Assembly (NCBI GenBank): GCA_040394885.1
Contig: JBEBRK010000011.1
Coordinates: forward strand, 9,549 to 73,548
Direction of reading: 5' to 3'
Origin: Gemmatimonas phototrophica
Lineage (GTDB): Bacteria; Gemmatimonadota; Gemmatimonadetes; Gemmatimonadales; Gemmatimonadaceae
Length of the DNA stretch: 64,000 nt
Within the stretch, counting starts at the first letter, position 1. Every line of letters begins with the position of its first letter. Positions 11,906 through 55,331 of the stretch are shown one piece after another. The notes beneath the pieces are model-generated. The model was given only the letters and a program-made list of their open reading frames with translations, ran no database searches and had not been told where the DNA came from. The translations under genes and the position numbers were made by a program.

Positions 11906-11906
11906 A

Positions 11907-20113: not shown

Positions 20114-20121
20114 TACTGTCG

Positions 20122-20175
20122 GGCGTATGCTAAACGCTAGCAGCAAACACTAGCAGCTGAATTTCAGCATACGCC
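20122..20175. terminator. Inverted repeat between convergent genes (possible bidirectional terminator)
   Basis: GGCGTATGCT ... AGCATACGCC arms of 10 bp with a 34-nt loop. No clear U-tract is present. Confidence 0.4.
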
Positions 20176-20202
20176 TAACACTGATTCCAGGCTGTTCTGA
20201 GC

Positions 20203-20505: not shown

Positions 20506-20555
20506 CTAACAAAATTACCAAAATTGTTGTGGTAGATGTGGAATGTTGAAATTAT

Positions 20556-21351: not shown

Positions 21352-21670
21352 AATATCCTAAGCTTTTAGAGTAACATCCATTCAACTCTGAAAATTACCA
21401 ATCAGAGGAACCTTGCAGTTGGGTCAAATATCTGGCAAGACCGGCTCAAGCGCTACCCTTTTTCATCTAAATTGAATACAGAATAAACACGCGACAATAT
21501 TTGGATGGTTTGACTAATACAAGAGCGAACACTCAGTTTAACTCAAACTTTATCACATTTACACTATCAACACGATACATTTAGTACATATTACGCTCTA
21601 TACCTTGCTAAAGTGTAGAAATACCATATACTTAGCCGCGATTTCAACACTCTTTTTTTAGTGCATTTCC

Positions 21671-22348: not shown

Positions 22349-22360
22349 CTCGTCGGAACA

Positions 22361-22972: not shown

Positions 22973-22997
22973 CTCGTAAACTGGAGACAACAACAAC

Positions 22998-23246
22998 GTG
23001 TCAGATTCAGTCGATAATCAGTCAGGCCTTGCCGGGGCCCGAGCAACCCGCTGTAAATTCTGCAGCCAGAAACTTCCTACCGACAGAGATTCCAACTACT
23101 GTCCGCACTGCGGCGACAATCTCAAAATTTCACGATGCGCTGCATGCGGAGTTGAGATGGATACCAGCTGGAATTTCTGTATTATCTGCGGTCGTCGCGC
23201 ATCGAAATCACCTCCCGCCCCTCTAAAGTTCGGGCCAGGAGAGTAA
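22998..23246 (+). CDS. Double zinc-ribbon domain protein
   Basis: Four CxxC pairs: CKFC, CPHC, CAAC and CIIC. It starts at a GTG, and its 3' tail overlaps the convergent permease gene. Confidence 0.55.
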   Translation: MSDSVDNQSGLAGARATRCKFCSQKLPTDRDSNYCPHCGDNLKISRCAACGVEMDTSWNFCIICGRRASKSPPAPLKFGPGE

Positions 23247-32378: not shown

Positions 32379-33155
32379 CTATGAAAGTAGGGGAGAAAAA
32401 GCGGCCGGAACGGTGAATGTGAATTTGCTTCCAAAACCCGGTTCAGACTCTACAGAAATATTGCCGTCTACCAGCAGTGCCAGCTGTTTAGCCAGGTACA
32501 GTCCCAATCCAATTCCCCCATGCTGACGCGTCAGACCAGTATCCAATTGGACAAAGGCTTCAAAGATCTTCCCGTGATTTTCCGAAGGGATTCCAATTCC
32601 ATTATCCACTATTGTAAACACGACATATTCACCGTCTTTGTGGGCCCGCAAAACCGTCTCTTTCGAGTGTATTTCGTTCGCCGAAAACTTAATTGCATTT
32701 TCCAGGAGATAGACCAAAATCTGACGTACTTTATCACGATCAATCGACATCACCGTCATCGGATCTTCAATCTGGCCTTCCAGACTCACACCCGCCTTCC
32801 TTGCATTCGGCTCCACCACCAGAAGCGCATCGGAGACAACCTCTGAAACCAGGTACTCCGGCCCAATCCGAACCCGCTCCTTTTCAGCCTGAAGATTCGC
32901 ATATGTAAGCAGGGATTCTATCAGGTTGCTCATTTTCTGAGCTACAACCCGCATCCTTTCTACTGTTTCCGACTGACCCGAATTCAGCTCACCGTACACC
33001 CCATCCAACAAAAGCTCCCCATAACCAGTAAGAGTGGTTAGCGGAGTTCGCAGCTCATGGGAGACGTTTGAAAGGAAGTCGTGATCGCAGCCATCACACT
33101 CTTTCCCTATCCTAACGCAGCTGCATCCAGTTTTTTGGGGGGATGAATTAAACAA
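32379..33155 (-). CDS. Soluble sensor histidine kinase core (HisKA + HATPase) with short Cys-rich N-terminus
   Basis: H-box SHELRTPL, N-box LLENAIKF, G1 DNGIGI and G2 GGIGLGL. It has no TM segment. The TTG start is uncertain. Confidence 0.75.
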   Translation of the reverse strand: MFNSSPQKTGCSCVRIGKECDGCDHDFLSNVSHELRTPLTTLTGYGELLLDGVYGELNSGQSETVERMRVVAQKMSNLIESLLTYANLQAEKERVRIGPEYLVSEVVSDALLVVEPNARKAGVSLEGQIEDPMTVMSIDRDKVRQILVYLLENAIKFSANEIHSKETVLRAHKDGEYVVFTIVDNGIGIPSENHGKIFEAFVQLDTGLTRQHGGIGLGLYLAKQLALLVDGNISVESEPGFGSKFTFTVPAAFSPLLS

Positions 33156-34557: not shown

Positions 34558-36303
34558 ATGAAAGCAAATTCTTTTAAAGTTTACGGACAGTTATTAAAAA
34601 ACGCTCGAGGCACTGTCATTTTTATGACTGTGTCAGGCGTCATAGCGGGGCTTTGCAGTGCCGGTATTCTGGCACTTGTAAACCAGGCTTTAAATAAAGA
34701 CCATCACATAACCACACTGCTAATCAGCGGGTTCATTGCGTTGGCAGTAGCTAAAATCGTTTCAAACGCTGCGTCCCAGCTGTTGCTGGTAAAATTCTCG
34801 CAGACTACGATTCTCAACCTTTCGATCAGCCTTTGTGGTCGCGTACTCAATGCACCACTACGTGTAATTGAAAGGCATGGTGGCGCCAACATCATGACCA
34901 CCCTTACAGACGACGTCGGAGCAGTGACATGGGCTGTACAGGTCATGCCGCAGCTGGCGATGAACGCTTCTATAGTAATAGGTTGCAGCCTTTACATAGC
35001 CTGGCTGTCAAAGACCATGTTCCTCGGCGCTATGATCGTCGGCTTGCTGGGCGTTGGAGTCTACAAGCTCCTGCATACGAGAGCGGTAGCGCGTATTCAG
35101 GCAGCACGTGATGCAAGAGAGCGCCTGTTCGAGCACTTCAGAACACTGACCGGCGGCATCAAGGAGTTGATGCTCCACAAGGATCGCAGAGATTCGTTCC
35201 TCAATCAGGAGATCAACCGCGCAGCTCAGGAATACCGCTCCAACAATATTGTAGCTACAAAAAACTACGCAATTGCCGAGGGATGGGTACAAACGCTTTA
35301 TCATGCCCTTATGGCATTAGTGCTCTTCGTATCTCCCATATTATTAGAGGCGAGCCCGGAAGCATTAACAGGTTATATGTTTGCGATGTTGTACATGATG
35401 ACTCCGCTCTGGAACATCATAGGGTCCTTACCGCCGATTGCACAGGGAAAGGTCGCGCTCGAGAGGATTGACAAGCTAAACAAATCCATCGAACAGCACT
35501 CAGTAGCTCACTATAACGAGCTCACCGATGGAAAGTCCTCTTCCACAGAAGTCTCCGAAAGACAACTACCAAAGGCCTCCCACATTGAGATGAAAGACAT
35601 TGCGTTTACGTACGCATCTAAATCTCAGATAAAAGATGGTGATCATCCATTTGCACTTGGCCCTCTTGATTTCAGCCTGGCTCCTGGCGAGCTGGTGTTC
35701 GTTATCGGCGGAAATGGAAGTGGAAAGAGTACCTTCGTTAAAGTTTTAACCGGCCTGTACGCACCATCGAGCGGAAGTCTCAAGATCGACGGCAAAGAAG
35801 TCACAGAGTTTTCACGGGAATTGTACAGAGAGAACTTTTCGGTTGTTTTCGCTGAAGTATTTGTATTCGACAAGCTCCTCGGATTGAATTCACCCGACCT
35901 TGAAACGAACGCATTAAAGTATCTGAAGCTGCTTCAGATCGATCACAAGGTATCGATCAGATCAGGCGCGCACGGTCTTGAGTTTACAACAACTCAGCTT
36001 TCAACAGGACAGCGTAAAAGATTGGCACTGGTTACAGCGTATTTAGAAGACAGGCCAATTTATGTTTTCGATGAATGGGCAGCGGATCAGGATCCAGAGT
36101 ACAAGAAGATATTTTATTCGAAGCTCCTTCCGGACCTTCGTAACAGAGGAAAGGCGGTTGTAGTTATAACTCACGACGATCGCTACTTCTCAATGGGTGA
36201 TAGGGTCGTGAAATTGGATGATGGTAAAGTTGTAGATTGGGTTCCAACACCTGACTCTGAATTAGAAGTCCCTATCAAGCTTCCCAATCCACATCACGTC
36301 TAA
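34558..36303 (+). CDS. Cyclic-peptide-type export ABC transporter (SyrD/PvdE/YojI family, fused TMD-NBD)
   Basis: Six predicted TM helices are followed by Walker A GGNGSGKST, signature LSTGQRKRLAL and the family-typical Walker B region YVFDEWAADQDP. Confidence 0.85.
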   Translation: MKANSFKVYGQLLKNARGTVIFMTVSGVIAGLCSAGILALVNQALNKDHHITTLLISGFIALAVAKIVSNAASQLLLVKFSQTTILNLSISLCGRVLNAPLRVIERHGGANIMTTLTDDVGAVTWAVQVMPQLAMNASIVIGCSLYIAWLSKTMFLGAMIVGLLGVGVYKLLHTRAVARIQAARDARERLFEHFRTLTGGIKELMLHKDRRDSFLNQEINRAAQEYRSNNIVATKNYAIAEGWVQTLYHALMALVLFVSPILLEASPEALTGYMFAMLYMMTPLWNIIGSLPPIAQGKVALERIDKLNKSIEQHSVAHYNELTDGKSSSTEVSERQLPKASHIEMKDIAFTYASKSQIKDGDHPFALGPLDFSLAPGELVFVIGGNGSGKSTFVKVLTGLYAPSSGSLKIDGKEVTEFSRELYRENFSVVFAEVFVFDKLLGLNSPDLETNALKYLKLLQIDHKVSIRSGAHGLEFTTTQLSTGQRKRLALVTAYLEDRPIYVFDEWAADQDPEYKKIFYSKLLPDLRNRGKAVVVITHDDRYFSMGDRVVKLDDGKVVDWVPTPDSELEVPIKLPNPHHV

Positions 36304-36321
36304 GCTACGGGGTAGAACTCC

Positions 36322-39180
36322 ATGCCAAATTCGATAGCTGAATTATTGGCGAAGCTCAGAAGTCTAGAGATTGAAATTAAGCTAGACGGAGAAAAGTTCA
36401 GTGTGAGTGCACCAAAAGGAGCACTCACACCAGATATTCAGAATGAGATTCGTGTCAATAAAAGCGACATAATCGCCGCCCTTGGCTCGCCAAAGCCTGG
36501 GACGACCGCAGGAGATTTATCGTTTTGGCAAAAGCTGCTAGCTAACTCTGCTGCTGAAATTGAAATAGCATTCGATAAGCCAAGGGGACTCACTACACCA
36601 CAATTCGATAAAGTTGTTGACGGATTATCAGCACAGGAACACGAAGCGCTAAAAGCAGCAGAACAGAAATTATCGCTCAAGGCAGATGTGATTTTGTTCG
36701 CTGCGTTTCAGATAACTGTAGCCCGACTCGCGTCCCACTACGATGTTATCAGTGCATTTTCTTCGGATGCGGAAGCCGCTGACAGTATCCCTCTACCTGT
36801 AAGAACGGATATATCCGAAAATCCGCACCTGCGTTCGGCGCTCAAAATAATAGCAGAAGCTGTTTCGACATCTCTTTCGCACACAACACCTGAACTATTG
36901 CAGTTTCTGGAAGCAGTACAGGCGTCGAGAGAGGTTTCGAACCTGCCGGCATTTCAAACTGCCTTTAGGTATGCCAAAGACGCCAAAGCTGCGGCACAAC
37001 AATCTGAGGGAAAACAGGAAAACGGGTTAACCGCAGATACAGCAACGGTTACCCAAAACCCTGATATCCGAAAGAACAGATTAACTGCAGATGCAGATCT
37101 TTCACTTTCAGTGTTGGATTGCGACGGAAAAGTTGAACTCTCCCTGACCTACAATTCAGCGATTCAGGAAGCTGCGACAGCCAGGCTTTTCCTGACGCGA
37201 TTCAAGATCGTCTTAAACGCAATCATGGAAAACAAGGATATTGGAATCCTGAACTTTCCGATTGTTACAGATGAAGAACGTGCACGAATTTTAGGAGATT
37301 GGAATCCATCTGATTCTGGGAATTGGGATTTCAACAGATGCGTTGGAGATCTGATATCTGAACAGGCACAAAAAACACCGAACAAGATTGCTATCACTGA
37401 TGGCGTCCGTTTGCTTACTTACAGCGAACTGGAAGCTGAAGCGAATCGCCTCGCAAACTACCTTATTGAAGTTGGAGTCCACCCAAAGAGCAAGGTTGGA
37501 ATCTGCGTCGAACGGTCACCAAACATCGTCATCTCTGCCCTCGCAATCTGGAAGGCGGGAGCTGCATATGTACCACTCGATTCAACCTATCCTAAAGATC
37601 GCCTGGCATACATGGCGGACGATTCCGCCATTGAAGCTCTCATAACAGAAGAGAGCCTGGCTTCACTAGTGGAAGTTGATGCGTCTAAAGCTACGATTGT
37701 ATATCTGGATAAAGATTCCAACAAGATTGCTTCGCAGCCCAGTACAGTACCTGATATCCAGCGTTCGCCAGACGATCTTGCTTATATCATCTACACATCC
37801 GGATCGACCGGACGCCCTAAAGGAGTGATGATACGGCATCTGGGAGTCGCCAACTTCATATTAGCTCTACGCGACAGGACCAACTTTAAAGAGGCTGATA
37901 ACTTCTTTTCGGTCAGTGCAGTATCGTTCGACGTATCCATCGCCGAATATTATATGCCGCTTATTACCGGAGGAACGGTTACGGTCGCTCCCTTCTCTCT
38001 TGCGGCTGACGGAACCAGGCTTAAGGGATTAATGTCCGAATCCAAACCGACCTTTATGCAGGCAACCCCTGCACTTTGGCGGTTGATACTGGACGCTGGC
38101 TGGAAGGATGGTAGAGGAATGACCATCTATTCCGGTGGCGAGGCACTCACAAAGGAGCTGGCGTACTCTCTCTTAAGCACCGGCGCATCCCTCTGGAACC
38201 TCTATGGTCCGACCGAAGTTTCTATTTATTCTCATTTCTATAATGTCCCTGAGAACGCTGAAAGAATATACGTCGGGCGACCGTTTCCCAATTATTGCGT
38301 TTATGTCCTAAACGAGGCCGGTGAACTTGCCCCTCCTAATGTATTAGGGGAGATTTTCTTAGGCGGTGTAGGTGTTGCGGTTGGATATTTAAACAGAGAT
38401 GATCTGACGAAAGAACGTTTTGTTAGAGATCCATTCTCGAAAGCCCCGAATGCCAGAATGTACCAGACTGGGGATCAGGGGCGGTTTAGCAGCAGCGGCG
38501 AACTTGAATGTACCGGCCGGTTGGATAATCAGGTGAAAGTCAGAGGTTTCCGTATTGAACTAGGCGAAATCGAGTCACAGCTTGCCACAGACCCGTCTAT
38601 TAAGAAAGCTGTTGTCGTGGTTAGAGAAGATTCCCCTGGTGACAAACGTATAGTTGCATATGTGCAGCCGACGACCGGTCGCTCAGTTGACCCGGAATCG
38701 CTTAAGCTGATGCTCGGCCAACAGCTCCCGCCTTATATGGTTCCAGCGTTATTCATGACTATGGACTCCTTTCCGCTGACACCAAGCGGGAAGGTAGACA
38801 GTCGGAATCTTCCGGTACCAAAGCTTCAGCGAAGCGCTGCTGCTCAGTTTATAGCCCCGACTTTAGGGTTGGAGTCAGAGGTCGCATCAATCTGGAAAGA
38901 GGTTTTAAAGTTAGAAAAGGTTGGTTCCAACGAAAATTTCTTCGATCTTGGGGGAGACTCACTGCTAGCGGCTCGTTTACAGAATGAGCTGCAGCAGAAG
39001 TATACAATTAACTTCCCACTGGTCGAACTTTTTCGAAGCCCAACGATTTCTGCCATAACCAAGTTTATAGATAGTACAATTGGTGGAAGCATGAATACAT
39101 CCGAGAGTAATAAACGCTCATTCACATCACAGGCCCGTGAACGTGCAATGTTGCAAAATCGTACGAGACCAAAGCATTAG
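36322..39180 (+). CDS. NRPS loading module: TubC_N-type docking domain, relic C-terminal half of a condensation domain, A domain and PCP
   Basis: Docking domain: LLAKLRSLEIEIKLDGEKFSVSAPKGALTPDIQNEI. A-domain cores: LTYSELEAEANRLANYL, YIIYTSGSTGRPKGV, YGPTE, YQTGDQGRF, GRLDNQVKVRGFRIELGEIE and PSGKVD. PCP: FFDLGGDSLLAARL. No HHxxxDG motif is present. Confidence 0.9.
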   Translation: MPNSIAELLAKLRSLEIEIKLDGEKFSVSAPKGALTPDIQNEIRVNKSDIIAALGSPKPGTTAGDLSFWQKLLANSAAEIEIAFDKPRGLTTPQFDKVVDGLSAQEHEALKAAEQKLSLKADVILFAAFQITVARLASHYDVISAFSSDAEAADSIPLPVRTDISENPHLRSALKIIAEAVSTSLSHTTPELLQFLEAVQASREVSNLPAFQTAFRYAKDAKAAAQQSEGKQENGLTADTATVTQNPDIRKNRLTADADLSLSVLDCDGKVELSLTYNSAIQEAATARLFLTRFKIVLNAIMENKDIGILNFPIVTDEERARILGDWNPSDSGNWDFNRCVGDLISEQAQKTPNKIAITDGVRLLTYSELEAEANRLANYLIEVGVHPKSKVGICVERSPNIVISALAIWKAGAAYVPLDSTYPKDRLAYMADDSAIEALITEESLASLVEVDASKATIVYLDKDSNKIASQPSTVPDIQRSPDDLAYIIYTSGSTGRPKGVMIRHLGVANFILALRDRTNFKEADNFFSVSAVSFDVSIAEYYMPLITGGTVTVAPFSLAADGTRLKGLMSESKPTFMQATPALWRLILDAGWKDGRGMTIYSGGEALTKELAYSLLSTGASLWNLYGPTEVSIYSHFYNVPENAERIYVGRPFPNYCVYVLNEAGELAPPNVLGEIFLGGVGVAVGYLNRDDLTKERFVRDPFSKAPNARMYQTGDQGRFSSSGELECTGRLDNQVKVRGFRIELGEIESQLATDPSIKKAVVVVREDSPGDKRIVAYVQPTTGRSVDPESLKLMLGQQLPPYMVPALFMTMDSFPLTPSGKVDSRNLPVPKLQRSAAAQFIAPTLGLESEVASIWKEVLKLEKVGSNENFFDLGGDSLLAARLQNELQQKYTINFPLVELFRSPTISAITKFIDSTIGGSMNTSESNKRSFTSQARERAMLQNRTRPKH

Positions 39181-39190
39181 CCATCTGACC

Positions 39191-42100
39191 ATGAACGCAT
39201 CCGAAAGTTCTTATCCTAATTCAGCTGTTGCAGTAGTTGGCATGTCTGGGCGCTTCCCAGATGCCAATAGTGTATCGCAGTTCTGGCAAAATCTTCTGGA
39301 TGGCGCGGAAGCACTGACAGACCTGTCGGATGATGAGCTTCTAAGTGCAGGTGCCGACGCTGAAAAGATCAAGGATCCGAACTACGTAAGAAAAGCATCT
39401 CTATTGAAAGGTTCGGAGATGTTTGATGCGAACTTCTTCGGAATTAATGCGCGTGAAGCGGAGCTAATAGATCCGCAACAAAGAGTTTTTCTGGAATGCT
39501 GCTGGGAAGCGATAGAAGATGCTGGTTATATCTGCGATAAATACCCTGGAAGCATCTCCGTTTATGCGGGAGCTGGCTACAATACCTACCTCCTTAGACA
39601 TATAGCGGGCAGCTCCGTTTTAAACGATCCCATAACAGCTTATTCAGCTCAGCTTGGGAACGACAAAGATTATCTGGCCACCCGCGTTTCATATAAACTC
39701 GATCTAAAGGGAGCAGCTGCCACAGTTCAGACCGCCTGCTCTACCTCTCTGGTTGCTGTGCAAAGAGCATGGCAGAGCCTGGTAGATTATGAATGCGACA
39801 TGGCTTTAGCCGGCGGCGTCTCGATAGCTCATCCGCAGACAGCCGGGTATCTGTTTATGGATGGAATGATCCTCTCGCCAGACGGACATTGCCGTCCATT
39901 TGACTCCAATGCGCGTGGCACCAGGTTTAGTCCAGGTGCTGGAGTAGTTGTTTTGAAACGCCTATCAGATGCTATTCGCGACAGAGATCAGATCCGTGCA
40001 GTAATTCTATCAGCATCAATCAACAACGATGGAGCGGGCAAGGTTGGCTTCTCTGCACCAAGCGTTGATGGACAGGCTGAATGTATTGCACTTGCTCAGG
40101 CAACGGCGGGAATCGACTCCAGCAATATCGAAAGTATCGGCTTTGTAGAGGCTCACGGAACCGGAACACAGTTAGGCGATCCTATCGAAGTTACAGCGCT
40201 TACGCAGGTTTTCGCTGAGTCCACCGACCGGAAACAGTTCTGCGCATTAGGATCTGGAAAGAGCAACATAGGTCATTTGGATGTGGCAGCCGGCGTTGCT
40301 GGATTTATTAAAACCGTGCTCTGTCTGGAAAACAGAAAGATTCCAGCAACTATCAACTTCGAAACACCGAATCCTCAGATCGACTTCGAGAATAGTCCGT
40401 TTTTCGTAAACACAAAGACTATAGACTGGAAGAGCAATTCACACCCCAGACGTGCTGCCGTCAGCTCATTTGGAATTGGTGGAACCAACGCCCATGCGAT
40501 TCTGGAAGAAGCGCCTGCACGTGAGTATTCGTTTCAGTTCGATGATGATGATAGCAACGCTGTCACACACACACTTGTTCTGTCCGCACGCTCTAAAGCC
40601 GCTCTTTCACAGACGGCTTCCAATCTGGCAGATCATCTGGACAGAGAGAGTCATCTTTCGCTGTCAGATGTAGCATATACACTACAGACTGGCCGCAAAC
40701 GATTCGAACATAGACAGACAATAACGGCCAACTCAATAGGTGACGCCATTTCAGCCTTGCGAGGCGAACGGAAGACCGGTGTTACCTATCTGGATGCTGG
40801 CAACCTCAACGACAACCCTCCTGTAACATTTCTGTTTAGCGGACAGGGGAGTCAGTACGTTGGGATGTGCCGAGATCTGTATAATGAAAATGCAACTTTC
40901 AGACGGTATTTCGATGAGTGCATCGCTGCGCTTCCGGCTTCATTTGGTCAGGATCTAAAAAGCACCATCCTTGGTTTTGAAAGCGGCTCCAAAGTATCGA
41001 CTGACGATAGCAGTGGCGGCAACAGTAGCGGCGGCAGCAGTGGCAACAGCAATGGCAGCAGTAGTAGCGGCAACAATCCAGATACAGCAGCAGCCAATAC
41101 GAGCAACAAACTCACTCAGACCAGCTACACACAGCCAGCACTATTTGCAATTGAATACGCCCTGGCTCGTACACTCATACATGCAGGTATCAGCCCAACT
41201 GCAATGATGGGCCACAGCATCGGTGAATATGTTGCTGCATGCTTGGCTGGAGTTATGTCTGTATCTGATGGCATGAAGCTCGTAAGTGAACGCGGCCGGC
41301 TGATGCAATCGATGGAGCCGGGCAAGATGGTGGCAGTACCGCTATCGGAAGCTGAACTGGCGCCGCTTGTGAACGAACCACTTACAATCGCCGCTATAAA
41401 TACTCCTGAGCTGTGTGTTGTTGCAGGTCCAGGCAACGCCATCGACTCATTTATCGAAAGCTTAGCAAAAAGAGAGATAGAAGTCCGGCCGCTGCACACA
41501 TCTCATGCCTTCCACTCCAGCATGATGGATGCAGCGATCGCTCCATTTATTGAAGCTTTTAAATCGGTTAATCTGAATACCCCCACAATCCCGTACATCT
41601 CAAACCGTACGGGCACATGGATAACTGCGGAACAGGCAACATCTCCCGAGTATTGGGCAGACCATCTGAGACATACAGTTCGTTTCTCGGAAGGTGTTAC
41701 CGAATTATCCAGGATTGACGGGATGGTTTTTGTTGAAGTTGGCCCTGGAAAAACTCTGGCAACTTTAACCCGTCAGTCGCTACAAGGGGCAAAGAACCAG
41801 ACAATCAACACAACTCCGCACGCCATGGATGACACTTCATCTTCGGCTGTGTTTGCAGAAAGCATCGGAAGGCTTTGGGCTGCTGGCCTGGAGATTAACT
41901 GGGATGCCTTTTATTCCGATGATCTGCCATATAAAACATCGTTACCAACTTATCCATTTGAGCGTAAGAAGTTCCTGCTGCCTCTCCGGTCACTTGGTGG
42001 TGCAGGAGTAGATTCTCTACAGAATACTGATTCCACCCAGTCTGCGGAGAATCATCAGAATTCATATGAACGCCCTGACATCAATCAGGAATTCATAGCC

Positions 42101-42364
42101 CCATCTTCTGAAACTGAGAAGTTCCTGGCAGAGACCTGGGAATCTCTTCTGGGGCTGGCATCAATTGGATCGGAAGACAACTTCTTTGAACTTGGCGGCC
42201 ACTCACTTCTGGCAACAAGTCTCATGACTCGCATACATCAGCGTTTTGATATGAGGCTTCCACTCAGAACTATTTTTGACGCTCCAACAATCAAGGAGCT
42301 AAGCCTCGTTATAGACAAACAATCTGCCCCACCAGATGAAGGCAGAGAGGAGATAGAGTTTTGA
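39191..42364 (+). CDS. Type I PKS module KS-AT-carrier protein with no reductive domains
   Basis: KS motifs: DPQQRVFLE, TACSTSLVA, EAHGTGTQLGDP and KSNIGHLDVAAG. AT motifs: GHSIGEYVAA and HAFHS (malonyl-type). Carrier: FFELGGHSLLATS. The ATG at 39191 is preferred because it lies 11 nt after the NRPS-1 stop. Confidence 0.9.
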   Translation: MNASESSYPNSAVAVVGMSGRFPDANSVSQFWQNLLDGAEALTDLSDDELLSAGADAEKIKDPNYVRKASLLKGSEMFDANFFGINAREAELIDPQQRVFLECCWEAIEDAGYICDKYPGSISVYAGAGYNTYLLRHIAGSSVLNDPITAYSAQLGNDKDYLATRVSYKLDLKGAAATVQTACSTSLVAVQRAWQSLVDYECDMALAGGVSIAHPQTAGYLFMDGMILSPDGHCRPFDSNARGTRFSPGAGVVVLKRLSDAIRDRDQIRAVILSASINNDGAGKVGFSAPSVDGQAECIALAQATAGIDSSNIESIGFVEAHGTGTQLGDPIEVTALTQVFAESTDRKQFCALGSGKSNIGHLDVAAGVAGFIKTVLCLENRKIPATINFETPNPQIDFENSPFFVNTKTIDWKSNSHPRRAAVSSFGIGGTNAHAILEEAPAREYSFQFDDDDSNAVTHTLVLSARSKAALSQTASNLADHLDRESHLSLSDVAYTLQTGRKRFEHRQTITANSIGDAISALRGERKTGVTYLDAGNLNDNPPVTFLFSGQGSQYVGMCRDLYNENATFRRYFDECIAALPASFGQDLKSTILGFESGSKVSTDDSSGGNSSGGSSGNSNGSSSSGNNPDTAAANTSNKLTQTSYTQPALFAIEYALARTLIHAGISPTAMMGHSIGEYVAACLAGVMSVSDGMKLVSERGRLMQSMEPGKMVAVPLSEAELAPLVNEPLTIAAINTPELCVVAGPGNAIDSFIESLAKREIEVRPLHTSHAFHSSMMDAAIAPFIEAFKSVNLNTPTIPYISNRTGTWITAEQATSPEYWADHLRHTVRFSEGVTELSRIDGMVFVEVGPGKTLATLTRQSLQGAKNQTINTTPHAMDDTSSSAVFAESIGRLWAAGLEINWDAFYSDDLPYKTSLPTYPFERKKFLLPLRSLGGAGVDSLQNTDSTQSAENHQNSYERPDINQEFIAPSSETEKFLAETWESLLGLASIGSEDNFFELGGHSLLATSLMTRIHQRFDMRLPLRTIFDAPTIKELSLVIDKQSAPPDEGREEIEF
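41008..41077 (+). repeat. Low-complexity Ser/Gly/Asn-coding tract in the KS-AT linker
   Basis: It encodes SSGGNSSGGSSGNSNGSSSSGNN from reiterated AGC/GGC/AAC codons. Confidence 0.6.
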
Positions 42365-45300
42365 CCACTGCTCAATTTATCGCCAGACTTAATGGGTTAG
42401 ACATTCGTCTTACCCGTAAGGGCGACAAATTAAGCGTGAATGCACCAGATGGTGCAATGACGCCTGAACTTCGTGCTGAAATAGCAGACCGCCGAGATCA
42501 ACTCCTCGCCTATCTGGGCACCGGGACAGATTTTGTACTCACTCAATCGCCTGATCCTACCGAAGGTCCACTGTCTTTTGCTCAGCAGCGGCTCTGGTTT
42601 TTATACAGATTAAATCCGCGGGATGTATCGTATAATCTCGCTGTAAGTGCTGTAGTGCCAGAAAGCCTCTCTAATGAAGAGCTTGAATCCCGTATCTCTG
42701 CACTGGTTCGTGACAACCACTCACTACGTACGATATTTCCCGAACGCGATGGTATTCCATTTCAGCGTGTTATAGAAGCTGAACCACATCTTTATATACG
42801 GGATGTGGATGTAGCCAGTGACGATATAGCCCGTCAGCGTGAAATTCAGTACGAGATTATGCGTCAGCCGTTCAAACTTGAGGCAGAAGTTTCAGTACGG
42901 TTCGAGCTCTTAAGACTGCGCGACGGCACCAGAATACTGCTCATTCCGATACATCATATAATATCGGATGCATGGTCGCTTGGAATTCTGATAGACCGGC
43001 TTATAGACGGGAGTTCGTCATCATCATCGTCGAAGTTTCAGTATCTTGACTTTGCAAACTCCGAACAGGCCTGGTTCGCATCACACGATCAGCAGGATCA
43101 CGCCAATTACTGGAATGAGATAATCAAGGGTCCAATACCGGCTCTTGAGCTCCCAACCAAGCCAGTATCATCTTCATTAACAGATGTAGTTGGCGATTCA
43201 TACCAATTCAAATTATCAGCAGAAGTCTCTGACAGGCTGAGGTCTTTGGCTCGCCAGAACGGCGTTACGCTATACAGCGTACTGCTCGGCATATTCAAGG
43301 TTGTCCTGCACAGATATTCAGGCCAACAGGACATACTGGTAGGTTCACCAGTTACGAATCGCTATAGTGTTGAGCTAGAGGATATGATCGGTATCTTCAT
43401 CAACACTATAATTGTGCGTACAAAGTTTGACGGGGAAACACCGTTCGCAAGTGTAGCAAAACAGATTCACAACTCGATGCTGGAATCTTTTGAACATAAA
43501 GATTATCCATTCGAAAAAGTTGTGGAACTTGCCAGACACAACAAATTCCCCTCCAATGCCTCGTTGTTCAGAACCGGCTTTATTCTAAACAACACACCCA
43601 GCGGTGGAAAACATCAGGATTTTACAGGCGGCTCTATCTTCGACCTTAGCCTGTACATGGAAGATGCCAAGGATGGGCTACTTGGAACATTAGAGTATAA
43701 TGTGAATCTGTTTGAGCTGGGTACGATAGAAAGATTTGCTGGCCACTACTCCACGCTGGCACGCGCTATCGCCAACCAGTTTGACGCGAAGATTAATTCT
43801 CTTGAGATTCTTTCTGATGCAGAGAGCGCTCAACTCGACAGCTGGAACGAGACAGCTAGAGAATATCCGAAAGATGTTACAACAGCACAGCTGATTGAAC
43901 GTCAGGCCATAGAACGCGCAAACAGCACAGCTGTTGTATCGAAATCGAAGCAGCTAACATATAACGAGCTGAACAGACGAGCCAATCAACTTGCCAGGCA
44001 TCTTCTGGAAAATGGTGTCTCAAGAGGCTCACTGGTCGGTGTGTGTCTCGACAGAGATGCAGCTATGCTCGTCTCAGTGCTGGCAGTATGGAAAGCTGGC
44101 GCAGCGTATGTTCCGTTAGATCCAACTTATCCTCAGGACAGGTTGGTTTATATGGCAGAAGACGCAAGGCTCGCAGCCATTATTTCCGAATCTAAGTTTG
44201 AATCTCTATCCAATACGATCGCTAGCGCTCCACAGGCTACAGTTGTTCTTGTAGATAAAGAATCAGAAGTAATAAAATCACGCAGCGACGAAAACCAGTC
44301 GCTCGAGCTATCTGCAACAGATGTGGCTTACGTCATCTACACATCTGGTTCTACAGGAAAGCCAAAGGGTGTTCTTATTGAGCACCGTTCTCTGGTAAAC
44401 CTGCTGTATTCCATAAAAGAGCAGCCAGGATTTGTTGAGTCGGATATTATCTTCTCAGTTACTACACTTTCCTTTGATATTGCCGGCCTGGAGCTGTACC
44501 TGCCGCTTATCTCGGGCGCGAAGGTGGTTATCTCCTCAAGACAGACACTTGCAGATCCGAGGGCACTCGCCCGAGAGATAAAGGCCTCCGGTACTACATT
44601 TATACAGGCGACCCCAGCGATGTGGCGCTTCCTCCTGGACTCGGGATGGAAGGATGGTGAAGGCTTAAGAATTCTTTGTGGAGGAGAAGCCCTGCCAAGA
44701 TCTTTGGCAAACGCAATTCTCGCTACAGGAGCTGAGCTGTGGAACGTATACGGGCCAACTGAAACTACAATATGGTCGACCTCTGTACTTGTAGAGAAAT
44801 CTGATTCACCTGTTTCGATAGGTCGGCCGCTTGCAAACACCCAGGTATATGTCCTGGATGAAAACAGCAACCGTTTACCAATCGGCATACCTGGTGAACT
44901 GTATATCGCTGGCGATGGCGTAAGCCGTGGATATTTAAACCGTCCGGACCTGACGTCAGAGCGATTTGTTGAAGATGTTTTTGGGTCAAAGAAAGCATCT
45001 ACTATAGACGAGGGTACTGCTATAGACGATGGTGCTGCGCAAACCAGAAAGATGTACAGAACTGGCGATCAGGTAAGGATGAATCCTGACGGGCAACTGG
45101 AATACATCGGCCGTCTCGATAATCAGGTTAAAGTTCGTGGTTATAGAATCGAGTTAGGTGAAATTGAAGCTGTTCTAGTTAAACACCCCGAGATTCAACA
45201 GGCCGTTGTGGTTGCACGTGAGGACACGCCTGGCGACCAGAGATTGGTGGCATATATCATCGGCAGCAATCGTGAGTTACAGAATACTGCGGACCCCGGC

Positions 45301-46548
45301 GAGTTTTCCCATCTCAGGGAAGAGCTTCGCGAATTCCTCAGCAAGTCGCTACCATCATTTATGGTTCCGGCGACATTTGTACCTCTTGGCAGCTTTCCAT
45401 TAACACCAAATGGAAAGGTTGATCGTAAGGCGCTTCCAGCTCCAGCATCCGATAATAAGGTTCATGGCGGCGATGAAGATCAGGCCCCGCAGTCTGAGTT
45501 AGAACGCAAATTGATTCAGATCTGGGAAAAGGTACTTGGAGTCAAGAACATTGGTCGTAACGACAACTTTTTCGATCTTGGAGGCAATTCGCTGCTGGGG
45601 ATACGCTTACTCTCTGGGATAGAGCGGGCATTAAATATCCGCGTGCCGGTAGCAGTGATATTCCAAGGCCAGACAGTTGCTGCCATGGCCATAACATTAG
45701 CAGATAACAACGAGATCGATCTCCATCTCCGTGCTGTTGCAGTTCAACCTCATGGAGATCTTCCGCCTCTCTTCTTTATTCCAGGAGTAAACGGAAATGT
45801 TATCGGCTACGAAGAGTTCGCAACTGGACTTGGACAGGATCGTCCTCTGTATGGCCTCCGGTCTGTCGGACTTGAAGGAGAGAGCGATCCATTAAATGAT
45901 CTTCCATCTATTGCCAGACACTTTGTAGCAGACGTTAAAAAGGTACAGCCACAAGGGCCTTACAACTTTGTTGGATTCTGTATCGGCGGGATAGTTGCTT
46001 TTGAAATGGCCCAGCAATTAAAAGCCGAGGGCGAAGAGGTGGAATTTCTGGGACTGATCGACACCTGGCCGCAGGACATGGTGCCTGTCCCAAAAGCCGC
46101 TTCGGAAACCGGGCAGCAGTTTTTATATCTGGCCGATGCTTTGAAGCGCAACATCAAAGAATTTTCTGCTATACCCAAAGGAAAAAGACTCAACTATATC
46201 AGACAAAAGCTTGGAGCAGCCACCGACATGGCTACAAAGCTTGATGTTTATAGAGGCGATGATGGTGAACGTCTGCAGGATCTTATAATTGCATCCAACC
46301 AGATCGCAGCCTCAACCTATATTGCATCCAAATACGATGGTCCGCTCAGTTTATTTATTACCCTTGGTGATTTAGAGGGACCTGACTCGAGTGACCCGCG
46401 TCTGTACTGGAAAGCCTTCGGAAACGAGGCAATATCATCTGTAATGTGGATCCCAGGCATAGACTCCGGTTCACTACTAAAGAATCCATACTTACCTGGA
46501 TTGTTGAAAGCACTAAAAACCACCCTAGAAGAAAGGAACAGAATTTGA
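42361..46548 (+). CDS. NRPS termination module: TubC_N-type docking domain, C, A, PCP and TE-like domain
   Basis: Docking: FIARLNGLDIRLTRKGDKLSVNAPDGAMTPELRAEI. C-domain motifs: SFAQQRLWF, HHIISDAWS, YLDFA and IGIFINTIIVR. A-domain cores: YVIYTSGSTGKPKGV, YGPTE, YRTGDQ, GRLDNQVKVRGYRIELGEIE and PNGKVD. PCP: FFDLGGNSLLGIRL. The TE region contains GFCIGG. The TTG start overlaps the PKS stop as TTGA. Confidence 0.9.
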   Translation: MTTAQFIARLNGLDIRLTRKGDKLSVNAPDGAMTPELRAEIADRRDQLLAYLGTGTDFVLTQSPDPTEGPLSFAQQRLWFLYRLNPRDVSYNLAVSAVVPESLSNEELESRISALVRDNHSLRTIFPERDGIPFQRVIEAEPHLYIRDVDVASDDIARQREIQYEIMRQPFKLEAEVSVRFELLRLRDGTRILLIPIHHIISDAWSLGILIDRLIDGSSSSSSSKFQYLDFANSEQAWFASHDQQDHANYWNEIIKGPIPALELPTKPVSSSLTDVVGDSYQFKLSAEVSDRLRSLARQNGVTLYSVLLGIFKVVLHRYSGQQDILVGSPVTNRYSVELEDMIGIFINTIIVRTKFDGETPFASVAKQIHNSMLESFEHKDYPFEKVVELARHNKFPSNASLFRTGFILNNTPSGGKHQDFTGGSIFDLSLYMEDAKDGLLGTLEYNVNLFELGTIERFAGHYSTLARAIANQFDAKINSLEILSDAESAQLDSWNETAREYPKDVTTAQLIERQAIERANSTAVVSKSKQLTYNELNRRANQLARHLLENGVSRGSLVGVCLDRDAAMLVSVLAVWKAGAAYVPLDPTYPQDRLVYMAEDARLAAIISESKFESLSNTIASAPQATVVLVDKESEVIKSRSDENQSLELSATDVAYVIYTSGSTGKPKGVLIEHRSLVNLLYSIKEQPGFVESDIIFSVTTLSFDIAGLELYLPLISGAKVVISSRQTLADPRALAREIKASGTTFIQATPAMWRFLLDSGWKDGEGLRILCGGEALPRSLANAILATGAELWNVYGPTETTIWSTSVLVEKSDSPVSIGRPLANTQVYVLDENSNRLPIGIPGELYIAGDGVSRGYLNRPDLTSERFVEDVFGSKKASTIDEGTAIDDGAAQTRKMYRTGDQVRMNPDGQLEYIGRLDNQVKVRGYRIELGEIEAVLVKHPEIQQAVVVAREDTPGDQRLVAYIIGSNRELQNTADPGEFSHLREELREFLSKSLPSFMVPATFVPLGSFPLTPNGKVDRKALPAPASDNKVHGGDEDQAPQSELERKLIQIWEKVLGVKNIGRNDNFFDLGGNSLLGIRLLSGIERALNIRVPVAVIFQGQTVAAMAITLADNNEIDLHLRAVAVQPHGDLPPLFFIPGVNGNVIGYEEFATGLGQDRPLYGLRSVGLEGESDPLNDLPSIARHFVADVKKVQPQGPYNFVGFCIGGIVAFEMAQQLKAEGEEVEFLGLIDTWPQDMVPVPKAASETGQQFLYLADALKRNIKEFSAIPKGKRLNYIRQKLGAATDMATKLDVYRGDDGERLQDLIIASNQIAASTYIASKYDGPLSLFITLGDLEGPDSSDPRLYWKAFGNEAISSVMWIPGIDSGSLLKNPYLPGLLKALKTTLEERNRI

Positions 46549-48668
46549 AAAGGTTATTTCTTTGCACCCTTGCAACATCTATAATTGCCTGCGATTCGGG
46601 GAATAATGATTTGAAATCAAATCCATTGATGGCAGACTGGACCGGCCCTTACGGCGGAGTTCCAGCATTTGACAAGATCGAAGTAAAGCATTTTGAGCCA
46701 GCCATCGAAGCTGCTATGGCAAACCAGTTAGCAGAAGTAGACTCTATTGCGAATCAGACCGAGCCAGCAACGTTCGAAAACACAATTGCTGCAATGGAAC
46801 GCTCTGGTCAGCTATTGGACAGAGTCATGTCTGCATACGGATTATGGTCTGGCAACTTTGCCACCCCTGAATTCCAGGAGGTGCAGACAAGAGTCAGTCC
46901 ACAGCTGGCAGCACATAGCGACAAAATAGTTCAAAATGCCCCTCTTTATGCACGCATAAAGTCGGTATATGAAAACAGGGACTCATTAACACCTGAACAA
47001 CAGCGCCTCACATGGGTCTACTGGAATATGTTCCGTAGAGCCGGGGCGGAATTGGATTCAGCCCAGAAATCGCGTGTGGCCGAAATCAATGGTGAGCTCG
47101 CAAAGTTATTCACAAAGTTCAATCAGAATCTGCTGGCCGATGAAGACACATACATTGTTCTGAACAGCTCCGAGCTGGAAGGTCTTCCAGAATCATTTCT
47201 CTCAGGAGCAGCCAGTTCAGCAAAAGAGCGCAAGGTTGAAGGTCATATCGTTGTAAACACTCGTTCCAGCGTAGATCCCTTCCTTACATACGCTACAAAT
47301 CGTACTGCAAGAGAAAAGGTCTGGAAAGCATTTGTTAACCGTGGGGACAACAACAACGAAACCGATAACAAAGCTATCATAACACAGATTCTGTCACTCA
47401 GAGCAGAGCGCGCTCAGCTTCTTGGCTACCCAACTCATGCACACTGGCGAGTTGAAGATGCGGTTGCGAAGACCCCTGAAAACGCGATGAATCTCATGGA
47501 ACAGGTCTGGCCAGCAGCAGTTGCTCGCGTAAATGAAGAAGTCGCAGAACAGCAGGCAATCGCAGACTCCGAAGGTGCAAATATTACCATCGAGCCATGG
47601 GATTACCGCTTCTACATGGAAAAGGTTCGCAAAGCCAAGTTCGATCTGGATCAGAATGAAATCAAGCCTTATCTGCAGCTCGATAAGTTACGCGATGGAA
47701 TGTTCTGGGTTGCAGGTCAACTGTTCGGTTTCCAGTTCTCACAGGTTAGTGACGTTCCAGTCCCACACCCTGACTTCCAGGTCTGGGAGGTCAAAGGTGA
47801 GGATGGCAAGCATGTAGGGCTCTTCTATTTTGATCCATATGCCCGCCAGGGCAAGCGTTCAGGCGCATGGATGACCGCCTACCGTACGCAGCAGAAGATG
47901 GACAAGGATGTTACAACTATAGTTTCGAACAACTCTAACTTCGTTAAAGCCGAAGCTGGAAAGCCAATCCTGATTTCCTGGGATGATGCCACAACACTAT
48001 TCCATGAATTCGGCCATGCATTACATGGACTTAACTCAAACGTTGTTTATCCATCACTATCCGGAACATCGGTAGCGCGCGATTATGTAGAGTTTCCAAG
48101 CCAGCTGTTAGAGCGCTGGTTAGCAACACCGGAAGTTCTTAATAAGTTTGCAGTCAACGAAGCAGGCGAGCCAATCCCTGCAGAGTTAGTTGAAAAGATC
48201 AAAAAGGCAGCAACCTTCAATCAGGGTTTCTCCACTGTTGAATATCTCTCAAGTGCACTTATCGATATGAAGCTGCACCTTGCCGGCGCAGCAAAAATTT
48301 CTCCAGACACATTTGAGAAGAACACGCTGGATGCTCTTGGAATGCCATCGCAGCTGGTTATGCGCCATCGCACACCACAGTTTGCACATATCTTCTCAAG
48401 CGACAGCTACTCTGCGGGTTACTATAGCTACCTGTGGGCCGATGCAATTACAGCCGATGCAGCTGAAGCGTTTACAACTTCACCTGGGGGATATTACGAC
48501 AGCACCGTTGCCAGAAAGTTGAAGGAGAATATTCTTTCAGTTGGAAACACTGTGGATCCAGCAACAGCGTATCGCAACTTCCGTCAGCGTGATCCTGATA
48601 TTGGCGCACTGATGAGAGCAAGAGGCTTCCCTGCATCAAAAACATATAAGCCTTTGAAAGCCAACTAA
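46545..48668 (+). CDS. dcp: Peptidyl-dipeptidase Dcp (M3 family), predicted lipoprotein
   Basis: HEFGHALHG zinc motif, with EFPSQLLE downstream. The in-frame TTG at 46545 overlaps the NRPS stop as TTGA and gives MKRLFLCTLATSIIAC, a lipobox-like signal. Confidence 0.85.
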   Translation: MKRLFLCTLATSIIACDSGNNDLKSNPLMADWTGPYGGVPAFDKIEVKHFEPAIEAAMANQLAEVDSIANQTEPATFENTIAAMERSGQLLDRVMSAYGLWSGNFATPEFQEVQTRVSPQLAAHSDKIVQNAPLYARIKSVYENRDSLTPEQQRLTWVYWNMFRRAGAELDSAQKSRVAEINGELAKLFTKFNQNLLADEDTYIVLNSSELEGLPESFLSGAASSAKERKVEGHIVVNTRSSVDPFLTYATNRTAREKVWKAFVNRGDNNNETDNKAIITQILSLRAERAQLLGYPTHAHWRVEDAVAKTPENAMNLMEQVWPAAVARVNEEVAEQQAIADSEGANITIEPWDYRFYMEKVRKAKFDLDQNEIKPYLQLDKLRDGMFWVAGQLFGFQFSQVSDVPVPHPDFQVWEVKGEDGKHVGLFYFDPYARQGKRSGAWMTAYRTQQKMDKDVTTIVSNNSNFVKAEAGKPILISWDDATTLFHEFGHALHGLNSNVVYPSLSGTSVARDYVEFPSQLLERWLATPEVLNKFAVNEAGEPIPAELVEKIKKAATFNQGFSTVEYLSSALIDMKLHLAGAAKISPDTFEKNTLDALGMPSQLVMRHRTPQFAHIFSSDSYSAGYYSYLWADAITADAAEAFTTSPGGYYDSTVARKLKENILSVGNTVDPATAYRNFRQRDPDIGALMRARGFPASKTYKPLKAN

Positions 48669-48709: not shown

Positions 48710-48741
48710 TGCTGGCTCTAAGAAATATTTTGGAGCCAGCA
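48710..48741 (+). terminator. Hairpin downstream of dcp (possible terminator)
   Basis: TGCTGGCTC ... GAGCCAGCA stem. No clean U-tract follows it. Confidence 0.35.
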
Positions 48742-53819: not shown

Positions 53820-55283
53820 CTACTTTAATCCGCTATCAACACCAAGCAATACAATCAACCCATCCGACAAGGTACCACGCCAGCTAAAGAAATCATGCCC
53901 TCCAATAAACTCTTTATGAGTTACCTTGTACCCCTTTGCCTGCAGCACATCTCTCATGTGCCTGTTGGTATCGAGAATACCGCCACCATCATTGGTAAGT
54001 GATATCTCAAAAATTCCCGCATCAAGATAAAACTCGATGGGCTTTTTAGGAGATTTTACATATTCCTTTATAAGCCATTCAGATTCGGAAAACTCATTGT
54101 AGAGTTCTGGAGTGTGGATGTTTCGAGTTGGCGACCACCAAAATGAACCCGACTGACTCAAAACTTTACCAAACACGGCGGGATATTTTAATGCCGCGTA
54201 CGCCCCTGCCAATCCTCCATAACTTGCTCCACCGATCAATGTTTTGTCAGGGTCATCTGTAATTGGATAATTGTCGCGTACCCAGGGCATAAACTCTTTT
54301 GCCAGCCCTTCTGTAAAATCAGGATTACAGGTAAGCTCAGCAGCCCGCGATGCAGCAGAAGGATTTGCGATCAGAACAACTATCATGGGTGGAATGACAC
54401 GCGCTGCAATCATATTATCCATAATTGTTTTAATGCCTGCTCGATATATATAAAAGTCTTCATCAAATAAAACCAACACTGGATATTTTTTAACGTCTAC
54501 AGAATCATCACGATTCATCCTGCTATCCGATTTGGCAGACTCATACCCATGAGGCGCATAAACTGTTATACGTCTAGTGTTCTTCCAGGCTTTGCTCTTA
54601 TAATTATGAGTTGTAAGCTGCCCAACAAAAACCGAGGAATCCGTTCTTACATATGGCTGAGGCGTCGCCCCTGGAAGCTCGACTGTTGAATAGTAACTGC
54701 CTTCTTTTATCCTCGAAGAATCCATCCATCTATTTTTATTGAGAGGATCTCCTTTCGCATCAGTCAGCATCTTACGCCTAACCGCTTTTCCATCAACTAC
54801 TAAAGTATTTGGAACTATCTGATATGAAATTCGAGCGCCAGCTGGAAGTGTGACAGTTTTATACCAGATATCTGTATCTGGAACATGAACAAACTCTGTA
54901 TCCTTGGGCCCTTCATCACGAATTGGCCACCACATATGGGGATTATAGGTAGAATCACCACGCCAGACAAAAGTAACGTTGTAGAACTTCGTTGAATTGT
55001 CACTATCTATCCGTTCAACGATCGGAGAACCATCAGTCTCTAATTCCTTCCAGAAGGATGCAATAATACTATCCCTGCTTGAATAGCTTTTCTCGCTGGA
55101 AATAGATTCTATAACGTGCCTCATCTTCTCGCTCTTTATCTCAGCAAAAGATGATGAAGATGAGGATGATGATAGCGACGACCTGCTCGCCATCTGAGCA
55201 CCAGTCACGGACGGCATAATACCTACAAACAAGACTACGACACCAAGGATTACCTGGTGTCGTATTTTACATACAATTATCAT
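53820..55283 (-). CDS. Esterase family protein (enterochelin esterase / IroE-like), secreted
   Basis: GGASYGG nucleophile elbow and C-terminal GGHDF. A beta-rich N-terminal domain contains VTFVWRGD. The ATG at 55283 gives a signal-like N-terminus. Confidence 0.65.
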   Translation of the reverse strand: MIIVCKIRHQVILGVVVLFVGIMPSVTGAQMASRSSLSSSSSSSSFAEIKSEKMRHVIESISSEKSYSSRDSIIASFWKELETDGSPIVERIDSDNSTKFYNVTFVWRGDSTYNPHMWWPIRDEGPKDTEFVHVPDTDIWYKTVTLPAGARISYQIVPNTLVVDGKAVRRKMLTDAKGDPLNKNRWMDSSRIKEGSYYSTVELPGATPQPYVRTDSSVFVGQLTTHNYKSKAWKNTRRITVYAPHGYESAKSDSRMNRDDSVDVKKYPVLVLFDEDFYIYRAGIKTIMDNMIAARVIPPMIVVLIANPSAASRAAELTCNPDFTEGLAKEFMPWVRDNYPITDDPDKTLIGGASYGGLAGAYAALKYPAVFGKVLSQSGSFWWSPTRNIHTPELYNEFSESEWLIKEYVKSPKKPIEFYLDAGIFEISLTNDGGGILDTNRHMRDVLQAKGYKVTHKEFIGGHDFFSWRGTLSDGLIVLLGVDSGLK

Positions 55284-55331
55284 TATAAAAATGCCTAAAA
55301 ATCTTATGGAAGGCTGAAGATATCCAAACAA

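Follow-up and report, generated by a model that had tools for sequence, protein, structure and literature searches.

A compact nonribosomal peptide–polyketide operon of Gemmatimonas phototrophica with a histidine-less cysteine release domain and a conserved adjacent Dcp-type peptidase

We analysed a stretch of 64 000 nucleotides from the Gemmatimonas phototrophica assembly GCA_040394885.1 (contig JBEBRK010000011.1, positions 9549 to 73548), hereafter the window, whose positions are counted from its first letter. At 34558–48668 the open reading frame (ORF) map places five co-directional genes on the + strand: an ATP-binding cassette (ABC) exporter with permease and ATPase fused (34558–36303, 581 aa), a nonribosomal peptide synthetase (NRPS) loading module, NRPS-1 (36322–39180, 952 aa), a polyketide synthase (PKS) module (39191–42364, 1057 aa), a terminal module, NRPS-2 (42361–46548, 1395 aa), and a zinc peptidyl-dipeptidase of the M3 family resembling Dcp, hereafter M3 (46545–48668, with the longest ORF opening at 46446; 707 aa). 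A first-pass annotation made from the letters alone had counted four genes and let NRPS-2 run to 48668; its true end is 46548, and the 2.1 kb at 46545–48668 encode the peptidase, whose gene appears translationally coupled to NRPS-2.

The intergenic distances along the operon are 18, 10, −4, and −4 nt, and its ∼14 kb of reading frames are unbroken, with all catalytic motifs intact except for the histidine of the release domain. The sole strong hairpin, a perfect 14-bp stem at 48710–48741, lies 3′ of M3, between the convergent M3 and SufE genes, and nothing comparable occurs between any two of the five genes; it likely marks the end of the operon. No MbtH protein, phosphopantetheinyl transferase (PPTase), or tailoring enzyme is encoded next to the operon, as had been noted before, nor among the ORFs scanned over most of the window. 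For comparison we used the contigs behind the relatives of NRPS-2, designated L001, L002, L003, L085 (an identical public contig), and L086.

The exporter had been assigned to the SyrD/PvdE/YojI type, an assignment that stands: with 468 bits it passes the cut-off of TIGR01194 (286.2), the model of cyclic peptide exporters, and it matches Pfam ABC_membrane (PF00664) and ABC_tran (PF00005), and carries both the Walker A motif GGNGSGKST and DEWAADQDP in its translation. Its L003 and L002 orthologues are 75–82% identical to it.

NRPS-1 begins with a TubC_N-type docking domain (PF18563, aa 5–54), a domain that also opens NRPS-2 (49.2 and 51.8 bits, respectively; cut-off 26). Its condensation (C) domain matches only profile positions 194–455 (aa 65–323, the C-terminal lobe) and lacks HHxxxDG, in line with the half domain described earlier; we read it as a relic from which the N-lobe and HHxxxDG were deleted and which is predicted to be catalytically dead. 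NRPS-1 of L001 retains a complete C domain with HHISTDG. The adenylation (A) domain (aa 346–824) matches AMP-binding (PF00501, 1.8e-85), AMP-binding_C, and TIGR01733 (420 bits, cut-off 317), and is followed by a peptidyl carrier protein (PCP) domain with the motif GGDSL (Ser codon 38959–61).

A-domain specificity codes were read by alignment to GrsA, where the anchor gave the textbook code DAWTIAAICK; position 278 was set by hand to the Q of ‘QATP’, and Lys517 was found in the A domains. NRPS-1 has the code DVAQYGLIYK, compared with DIMQFGVVYK in L002 and DILQLGMIWK in L001. The codes in the window and in L002 appear to be a glycine-like scaffold with altered pocket residues, suggesting that the A-domain pocket has diverged. 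The C-terminal tail of NRPS-1 is basic and ends in ARERAMLQNR (39061–39177), with the pattern S/D-x-ARERAxxQxR kept in three lineages (the window, L001, and L002).

The PKS comprises a ketosynthase (KS; ketoacyl-synt PF00109, 3.7e-70), a KS-AT linker, an acyltransferase (AT; Acyl_transf_1 PF00698, 9.6e-51), and a carrier (PP-binding), one of three PP-binding domains that Pfam finds across the assembly line. The KS carries TACSTS (Cys codon 39737–39), HGTGT, and KSNIGH; the AT carries GHSIGE (Ser codon 41216–18) and the malonyl-type motif HAFH; and the carrier carries GGHSL (Ser codon 42203–05). Pfam and NCBIfam scans of the PKS returned no ketoreductase (KR), dehydratase (DH), or enoylreductase (ER), so that profiles and motifs agree with the domain order first proposed. 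The longest ORF opens at GTG 39137, and the gene call in L085 starts at ATG 39191, which is most likely the true start. The acidic PKS tail GREEIEF (42341–42361) belongs to a pattern, REE(I/F)E(F/L), usually preceded by Gly, that is kept in three lineages; together with the basic NRPS-1 tail it probably forms the docking code of the line. A 42-aa low-complexity insertion rich in Ser, Gly, and Asn (SKVSTDDSSGGNSSGGSSGNSNGSSSSGNN...) lies in the AT at 40988–41113, N-terminal to GHSIGE, and is missing from the L002 and L001 orthologues.

NRPS-2 starts at a TTG that overlaps the PKS stop codon by 4 nt and consists of the TubC_N dock (aa 5–52), a full-length C domain (PF00668, 2.3e-86; HHIISDAWS, HH codons 42952–57), an A domain (AMP-binding 1.6e-92; TIGR01733 446 bits, cut-off 317), a PCP with GGNSL (Ser codon 45589–91), and a thioesterase (TE)-like release domain; Pfam bears out this order as it was first read. 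Its code, DILQLGVIWK, is identical in 6/6 orthologues examined and shares 9/10 positions with the canonical glycine code DILQLGLIWK, and the domain is predicted to be glycine-specific. More generally, every domain call of the first-pass annotation was recovered by the Pfam scan, with domain E-values between 1e-12 and 1e-112, and the codons that it quoted for the NRPS-1 and PKS carriers, the KS, the AT, and the NRPS-2 C domain proved in frame and exact on translation. Its overall picture, a collinear NRPS-PKS-NRPS line with a dedicated exporter of the cyclic-peptide type, therefore holds.

The release domain (45766–46545; approximately aa 1136–1395) departs from the canonical TE. The Pfam Thioesterase match is partial (3.2e-21, profile positions 2–118 of 226), and the AlphaFold model (mean predicted local distance difference test score 83.9) matches type I thioesterases in Foldseek with probability 1.00 and template-modelling scores of 0.62–0.68, the matches being the Skyxy, GbnD6, AB3403, NocB, and Vlm2 thioesterases. 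The nucleophile position, usually Ser, is Cys1207 (GFCIGG, codon 45979–81); Asp1234 (LIDTW, after β6) is retained, and both residues are invariant in 7 orthologues. Where canonical domains have the ‘G-x-H’ motif, PG-(N/D/T)H-x-x-M, the sequence here is PGIDSGSLL (DSG at 46462–70) and that of orthologues PG(I/L)DSG(S/A)LL, and no invariant His exists among the 7. The description ‘TE-like’ is thus right for the fold, while the Ser/Cys-His-Asp triad is lacking: Cys stands in for Ser, and there is no catalytic His.

When 1.84 billion representative proteins (50%-identity clusters) were searched exhaustively with HMMER and the nearest were aligned by us, the domain fell into a Cys/DSG subfamily to which 59 of the 150 nearest representative clusters (among P0361–P0509) belong. 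The subfamily shares the motifs GxCxGG, (D/E)TW, and xDSGx(L/M)L, with Cys1207, Tyr1320, Trp1350, and Ser1369 invariant, and no column in the alignment of its 59 members exceeds 42% His. Its members terminate modules whose A codes are diverse, often in dock-C-A-PCP-TE proteins of ∼1390 aa, and one of them (P0428; L090 10001–14131) comes after a gene for a purely NRPS bimodule. The Cys/DSG domain thus appears to be widespread and to catalyse release in general, with an active site that is non-canonical. Sequence, structure, and literature searches returned no characterised member of the subfamily, and a literature search for His-less Cys thioesterases found nothing relevant. Among solved NRPS thioesterases, a Cys nucleophile is known only from SulM, ObiF1, and AB3403, with a catalytic His discussed for ObiF1 and a triad Asp for AB3403 (PMC11298585).

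M3 matches PF01432 (1.6e-112, 377.6 bits), and its best NCBIfam match is peptidyl-dipeptidase Dcp. It scores 581.6 bits against the Dcp equivalog NF007624, below the cut-off of 944 (oligopeptidase A, 353 bits), a model that appears to be tuned to enterobacterial Dcp. The best sequence matches in the PDB are K-26-DCP (5L43, E 2.8e-156) and Escherichia coli Dcp (1Y79, E 2.6e-146), and the exact 707-aa product is on record (P0121). With the zinc site HEFGH (aa 487; 48003–17), a third ligand at Glu516, and a predicted lipoprotein signal (MKRLFLCTLATSIIAC|D), M3 is predicted to be a catalytically intact, exported zinc dipeptidyl carboxypeptidase of the Dcp type. The signal is of the lipoprotein kind in type A loci and a plain signal peptide in type B (types defined below). 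The TTG start at 46545 lies within ATTTGA, overlapping the NRPS-2 stop (TTGA), with AGGA 8 nt upstream.

Relatives of NRPS-2 were sought in 5.8 billion protein clusters (90%-identity clusters). Only seven clusters share its architecture at ≥ 50% identity, and the remaining matches are ≤ 42% identical. The first-pass annotation had recognised no characterised cluster of this architecture, and none was found; the operon is intact and lacks a characterised counterpart. A literature search for NRPS-PKS-NRPS lines with glycine likewise found nothing relevant. Scanning GTDB genomes with degenerate NRPS-2 patterns gave, among the matches listed, 80 loci, all ≤ 42% identical and carrying generic NRPS motifs, and scanning JGI metagenomes with the family motif PGVNGNVIGYE gave a single match, in a different high-GC cluster without M3.

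The relatives fall into two types. In type A, found in at least three lineages (the window, L002, and a further relative, whose NRPS-2 proteins are 100, 58, and 73% identical, respectively), NRPS-1 lacks the N-lobe of its C domain and the PKS lacks a KR. In type B (L001 and L086, 50%, plus a second, convergent copy in L003), the PKS is ∼500 aa longer and contains a KR with GGLGGIG and S…YSAAN (S/Y/N) motifs, which looks active. In L001, NRPS-1 and NRPS-2 are 46% identical over dock-C-A-PCP, indicating that they are duplicated modules. In L003 the system occurs naturally in a split or duplicated form: at 8146–24173 this contig carries exporter, NRPS-2, and M3 without NRPS-1 and PKS, and on the far side of SufE lie a convergent KR-containing PKS and an NRPS-2 paralogue (44% identical; code DALLLGGTFK as aligned).

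The operon had been described as a minimal island between housekeeping genes, and this description is not supported: its GC content (0.47–0.49) equals that of the flanks (0.46–0.50), and L002 and L003 carry the cluster at the same locus. In both, as in the window, a histidine-kinase core gene and an RlmL-like gene lie on one side and SufE on the other (followed by DAHP synthase in L002). The RNA methyltransferase and SufE flanks first named are thus present, with the qualification that SufE does not directly adjoin the synthetase, M3 lying between. Neither integrase nor transposase occurs among the adjacent genes examined, and the only tRNA is 32 kb away. The proposed comparison with related genomes thus found the cluster in place at both loci. 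Shared flanking proteins are 39–78% identical, compared with 43–58% for NRPS and PKS, 82% for the exporter, and 80% for M3. Because L002 and L003 share the locus although their flanks are only 39–78% identical, we read the cluster as old and vertically inherited, and because the synthetase identities fall within the range of the flanks, as under purifying selection, rather than as a recent island or a wreck.

From the catalytic inventory read from the sequence, and with the pathway inferred by standard collinearity rules, we consider it probable that the locus is a functional, vertically inherited five-gene line that makes and exports an aminoacyl-(β-keto C2)-glycine. PCP1 would be loaded with glycine or a small amino acid close to it, and the KS would add one malonyl unit to give a 4-amino-3-oxoacyl thioester on the acyl carrier protein (ACP). 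The acidic PKS tail would dock on the TubC-type domain of NRPS-2, whose C domain would join the chain to Gly-S-PCP, and the resulting H2N-CHR-CO-CH2-CO-NH-CH2-CO- chain would pass to Cys1207. As the domain has no His to activate water, release may proceed through an intramolecular or other good nucleophile, or by slow hydrolysis, giving a linear acid, a tetramate, or a self-condensed pyrazine derived from the α-aminoketone. The SyrD-type pump would then send the product to the periplasm, where the Dcp is expected to sit. The collinear skeleton predicted here is aa1-CO-CH2-CO-Gly, and that of type B is Gly-CH(OH)-CH2-CO-Gly, i.e. 4-amino-3-hydroxybutanoyl-glycine.

Several points weigh against this reading. 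No product is established for the operon, and turnover by the release domain is unproven without a catalytic His. To our knowledge, the NRPS-1 codes DVAQYGLIYK and DIMQFGVVYK match no described code. Given that the scanned ORFs include no PPTase, priming of the carriers must depend on an enzyme whose gene lies elsewhere. Before it reaches NRPS-2, a free γ-amino-β-keto thioester on the ACP could also self-cyclise to a simple tetramic acid. Finally, M3 may be only a conserved neighbour of the cluster.

That last possibility, in which M3 is a housekeeping gene kept beside the cluster by descent and the biosynthetic unit comprises the other four genes, comes close to an even chance; put differently, a functional link (processing, immunity, or target) and a plain ancestral neighbourhood seem about as likely as each other. 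M3 has normal catalytic motifs, is 64–68% identical to ordinary Dcps of several phyla, including those of Caulobacter, Acidobacteriota, and Bacteroidota, and is conserved to the degree of a housekeeping gene (80%, against 39–78% for the flanks). Its 4-nt overlap with NRPS-2 is not conserved either, with gaps of 62–98 nt in L001, L002, L003, and L086. The window is moreover rich in peptidases, encoding an S13 D-Ala-D-Ala carboxypeptidase (21–908), an S9 prolyl oligopeptidase (15373–17571), an S66 LD-carboxypeptidase (17945–18946), and an S15 X-Pro dipeptidyl peptidase (57844–59706), which weakens the case that a Dcp beside the cluster must be special. Against mere descent, M3 lies directly 3′ of NRPS-2 on the same strand in 5/5 related loci (L001, L002, L003, L085, and L086), including L001 and L086, where SufE and DAHP synthase give way to wholly different genes (MscL and flagellar genes), and it stays in L003 although NRPS-1 and PKS are missing between exporter and NRPS-2. 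In the window itself, its start overlaps the NRPS-2 stop with no terminator between. The five cluster-linked Dcps also share V164R/K, N305D, D335E, M336Q, W427F, H524R, and H538N, at positions 92–100% conserved in 115 other Dcps (96–100% for V164R/K, N305D, D335E, M336Q, and H538N); either a lineage effect or a change of function could account for these substitutions. The nearest Dcps outside such clusters lie in unrelated neighbourhoods, which are silent on the ancestral position of the gene, and a literature search for an M3 peptidase inside a biosynthetic cluster found nothing relevant. A more specific proposal, which we regard as quite unlikely, sees in the product a zinc-binding pseudopeptide that resembles captopril and is directed at dipeptidyl carboxypeptidases of the Dcp or angiotensin-converting enzyme (ACE) type, with the linked Dcp as immunity, decoy, or activating enzyme. 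Counted from the amide of a C-terminal amino acid whose carboxylate is free, the 3-oxo group (3-hydroxy in type B) would sit on the carbon that bears the thiol in captopril, and the predicted product would resemble a ketomethylene tripeptide analogue one carbon shorter. If true, this would be the first biosynthetic cluster in which an M3 dipeptidase marks self-resistance or the target, and natural ACE/Dcp inhibitors could then be sought by target-directed mining.

Other alternatives concern what happens at Cys1207. The first-pass annotation modelled the TE-like domain as performing a Dieckmann cyclisation to a 3-(aminoacyl)tetramic acid, and its substrate argument is sound: a KR-less PKS followed by a glycine module supplies exactly the class required, a β-ketoacyl-glycyl thioester, and a Cys thioester without a water-activating His would favour an intramolecular carbon nucleophile over hydrolysis. 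As a default outcome, however, it is weakened and in our view unlikely, since such a last intermediate is predicted for the window and not for the KR-bearing orthologous clusters, which would have no active methylene and yet keep an orthologous release domain (47–52% identical, with GxCxGG, DTW, and DSG). The wider Cys/DSG subfamily, with its many A codes and its member after a purely NRPS bimodule, speaks against it in the same way. No dedicated cyclase (R* domain, TrdC/SlgL-type, or reductase-like) is encoded in the operon or in the ORFs scanned. The line might instead work iteratively, either with Cys1207 holding one unit until the free amine of the next attacks to build a cyclic oligomer, or, in type B, with the intact NRPS-1 C domain re-accepting the PKS-bound chain. 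This would fit the ‘cyclic peptide’ exporter and the conserved PKS tail GREE(I/F)E(F/L), as well as the TubC-type dock that NRPS-1 keeps although it is the first module, the 46% identical NRPS-1/NRPS-2 paralogues of L001 with the same Gly code and an intact NRPS-1 HHxxxDG, and the oligomerising EntF and Vlm2 thioesterase domains among the structure matches; for SolG, a free-standing C-A-T module has been proposed to act iteratively (PMC10204066). However, the NRPS-1 C domain of the window is catalytically dead as read here, the docking domain may be left over from module duplication, and a release domain without a general base is poorly suited to repeated nucleophile activation, so that we hold the two iterative variants, taken together, to be very unlikely. 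That nothing is made at all, the operon being a decaying remnant, is highly improbable. Compared with the L001-type cluster, three features look reduced: the C domain is truncated, the KR is lost, and the thioesterase is His-less. Yet the frames and other catalytic motifs are intact over ∼14 kb, the reduced architecture recurs in the type A lineages, and the His-less domain is also found in unreduced sisters and dozens of other lines.

Among known systems, AB3403 (ABBFA_003403 of Acinetobacter baumannii; 4ZXH/4ZXI) is among the best PDB matches to NRPS-2, both by sequence (596 bits) and by fold, and shares its C-A-PCP-TE order, a Cys nucleophile (GWCFGG vs GFCIGG), and the Asp after β6. Reportedly it prefers glycine. 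Unlike NRPS-2, it has no TubC-type dock and is not fed by a cis-AT PKS, and the thioesterase domains are only 22% identical. AB3403 is described with a catalytic triad (PMC11298585), whereas the NRPS-2 domain has no conserved His. ObiF1 (6N8E) and SulM resemble the release domain in placing a Cys on a type I thioesterase fold, from which intramolecular attack frees their very small products (PMC11298585, PMC6668435). They differ in keeping the catalytic His with Asp at ‘position II’, and SulM reads Gln-Cys-Asn around the nucleophile, whereas the domain here has Asp at position I, Phe-Cys-Ile, and Asp-Ser-Gly in place of the His.

Tetramate assembly lines (bacterial polycyclic tetramate macrolactam PKS-NRPSs, fungal PKS-NRPSs with R* domains, and TrdC/SlgL systems) arrive at the same class of last intermediate as the KR-less operon. 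The operon differs from them in lacking R*, TrdC, or SlgL, in having a release domain common to KR-bearing and pure NRPS lines, and in its acyl part, which would be a single amino-acid-derived C4 unit and not a polyketide. The logic A-PCP → KS-AT-(KR)-ACP → C-A-PCP also builds the statine and γ-amino-β-hydroxybutyric acid units of didemnin, hapalosin, and microsclerodermin. There, the units are single steps of large lines and their amine is acylated, whereas here the unit would be the whole product, with the amine expected to be free.

For M3, the closest parallels are K-26-DCP and E. coli Dcp, which share its HEXXH...E zinc site. In Astrosporangium hypotensionis, the K-26 producer, the organism's own Dcp is poorly inhibited by this small ACE/Dcp-directed peptide (PMC5157764). 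K-26-DCP is not presented as a member of a biosynthetic cluster (PMC5157764), and M3 has no known inhibitor. E. coli Dcp is mostly cytoplasmic (PMC5157764), whereas M3 is predicted to be an exported lipoprotein.

Overall, the operon is a rare, intact, and mechanistically ordinary hybrid line with two unusual appendages, the His-less Cys release domain and the conserved Dcp, predicted to be exported. With three synthetase genes in ∼10 kb, it is among the smallest conceivable complete NRPS-PKS-NRPS lines and is expected to be easy to express, and its natural sisters with or without a KR, and with or without a working first C domain, form a ready comparison set. An understanding of turnover by Cys/DSG domains would matter for predicting the products of many orphan clusters. 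Linkage to an exported Dcp, conserved as it is, is unusual and, if functional, would point to small metallopeptidase ligands of a new class; should none of these points hold, the operon is one more orphan hybrid cluster.

Two features of the surroundings are of further note. The histidine-kinase core gene (32379–33155, − strand, 258 aa) encodes HisKA and HATPase only, without a sensor domain; it adjoins the RlmL-like gene and occupies the same position in L002 and L003. The earlier statement that no regulator lies next to the cluster is accordingly correct in that no transcription factor was found beside the operon or among the ORFs scanned over most of the window, and needs amending for this gene, a candidate regulator two genes upstream. 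Farther downstream, at 53820–57584 on the − strand, an enterochelin-esterase-like gene (220 bits, cut-off 222) adjoins one for a CirA-like catecholate TonB-dependent receptor with an N-terminal CarboxypepD_reg domain. Their presence raised the idea of a siderophore product, which we rejected because the syntenic L002 locus lacks the pair. For the same reason the pair looks like a lineage-specific insertion that serves the use of others' siderophores and is unrelated to the cluster.

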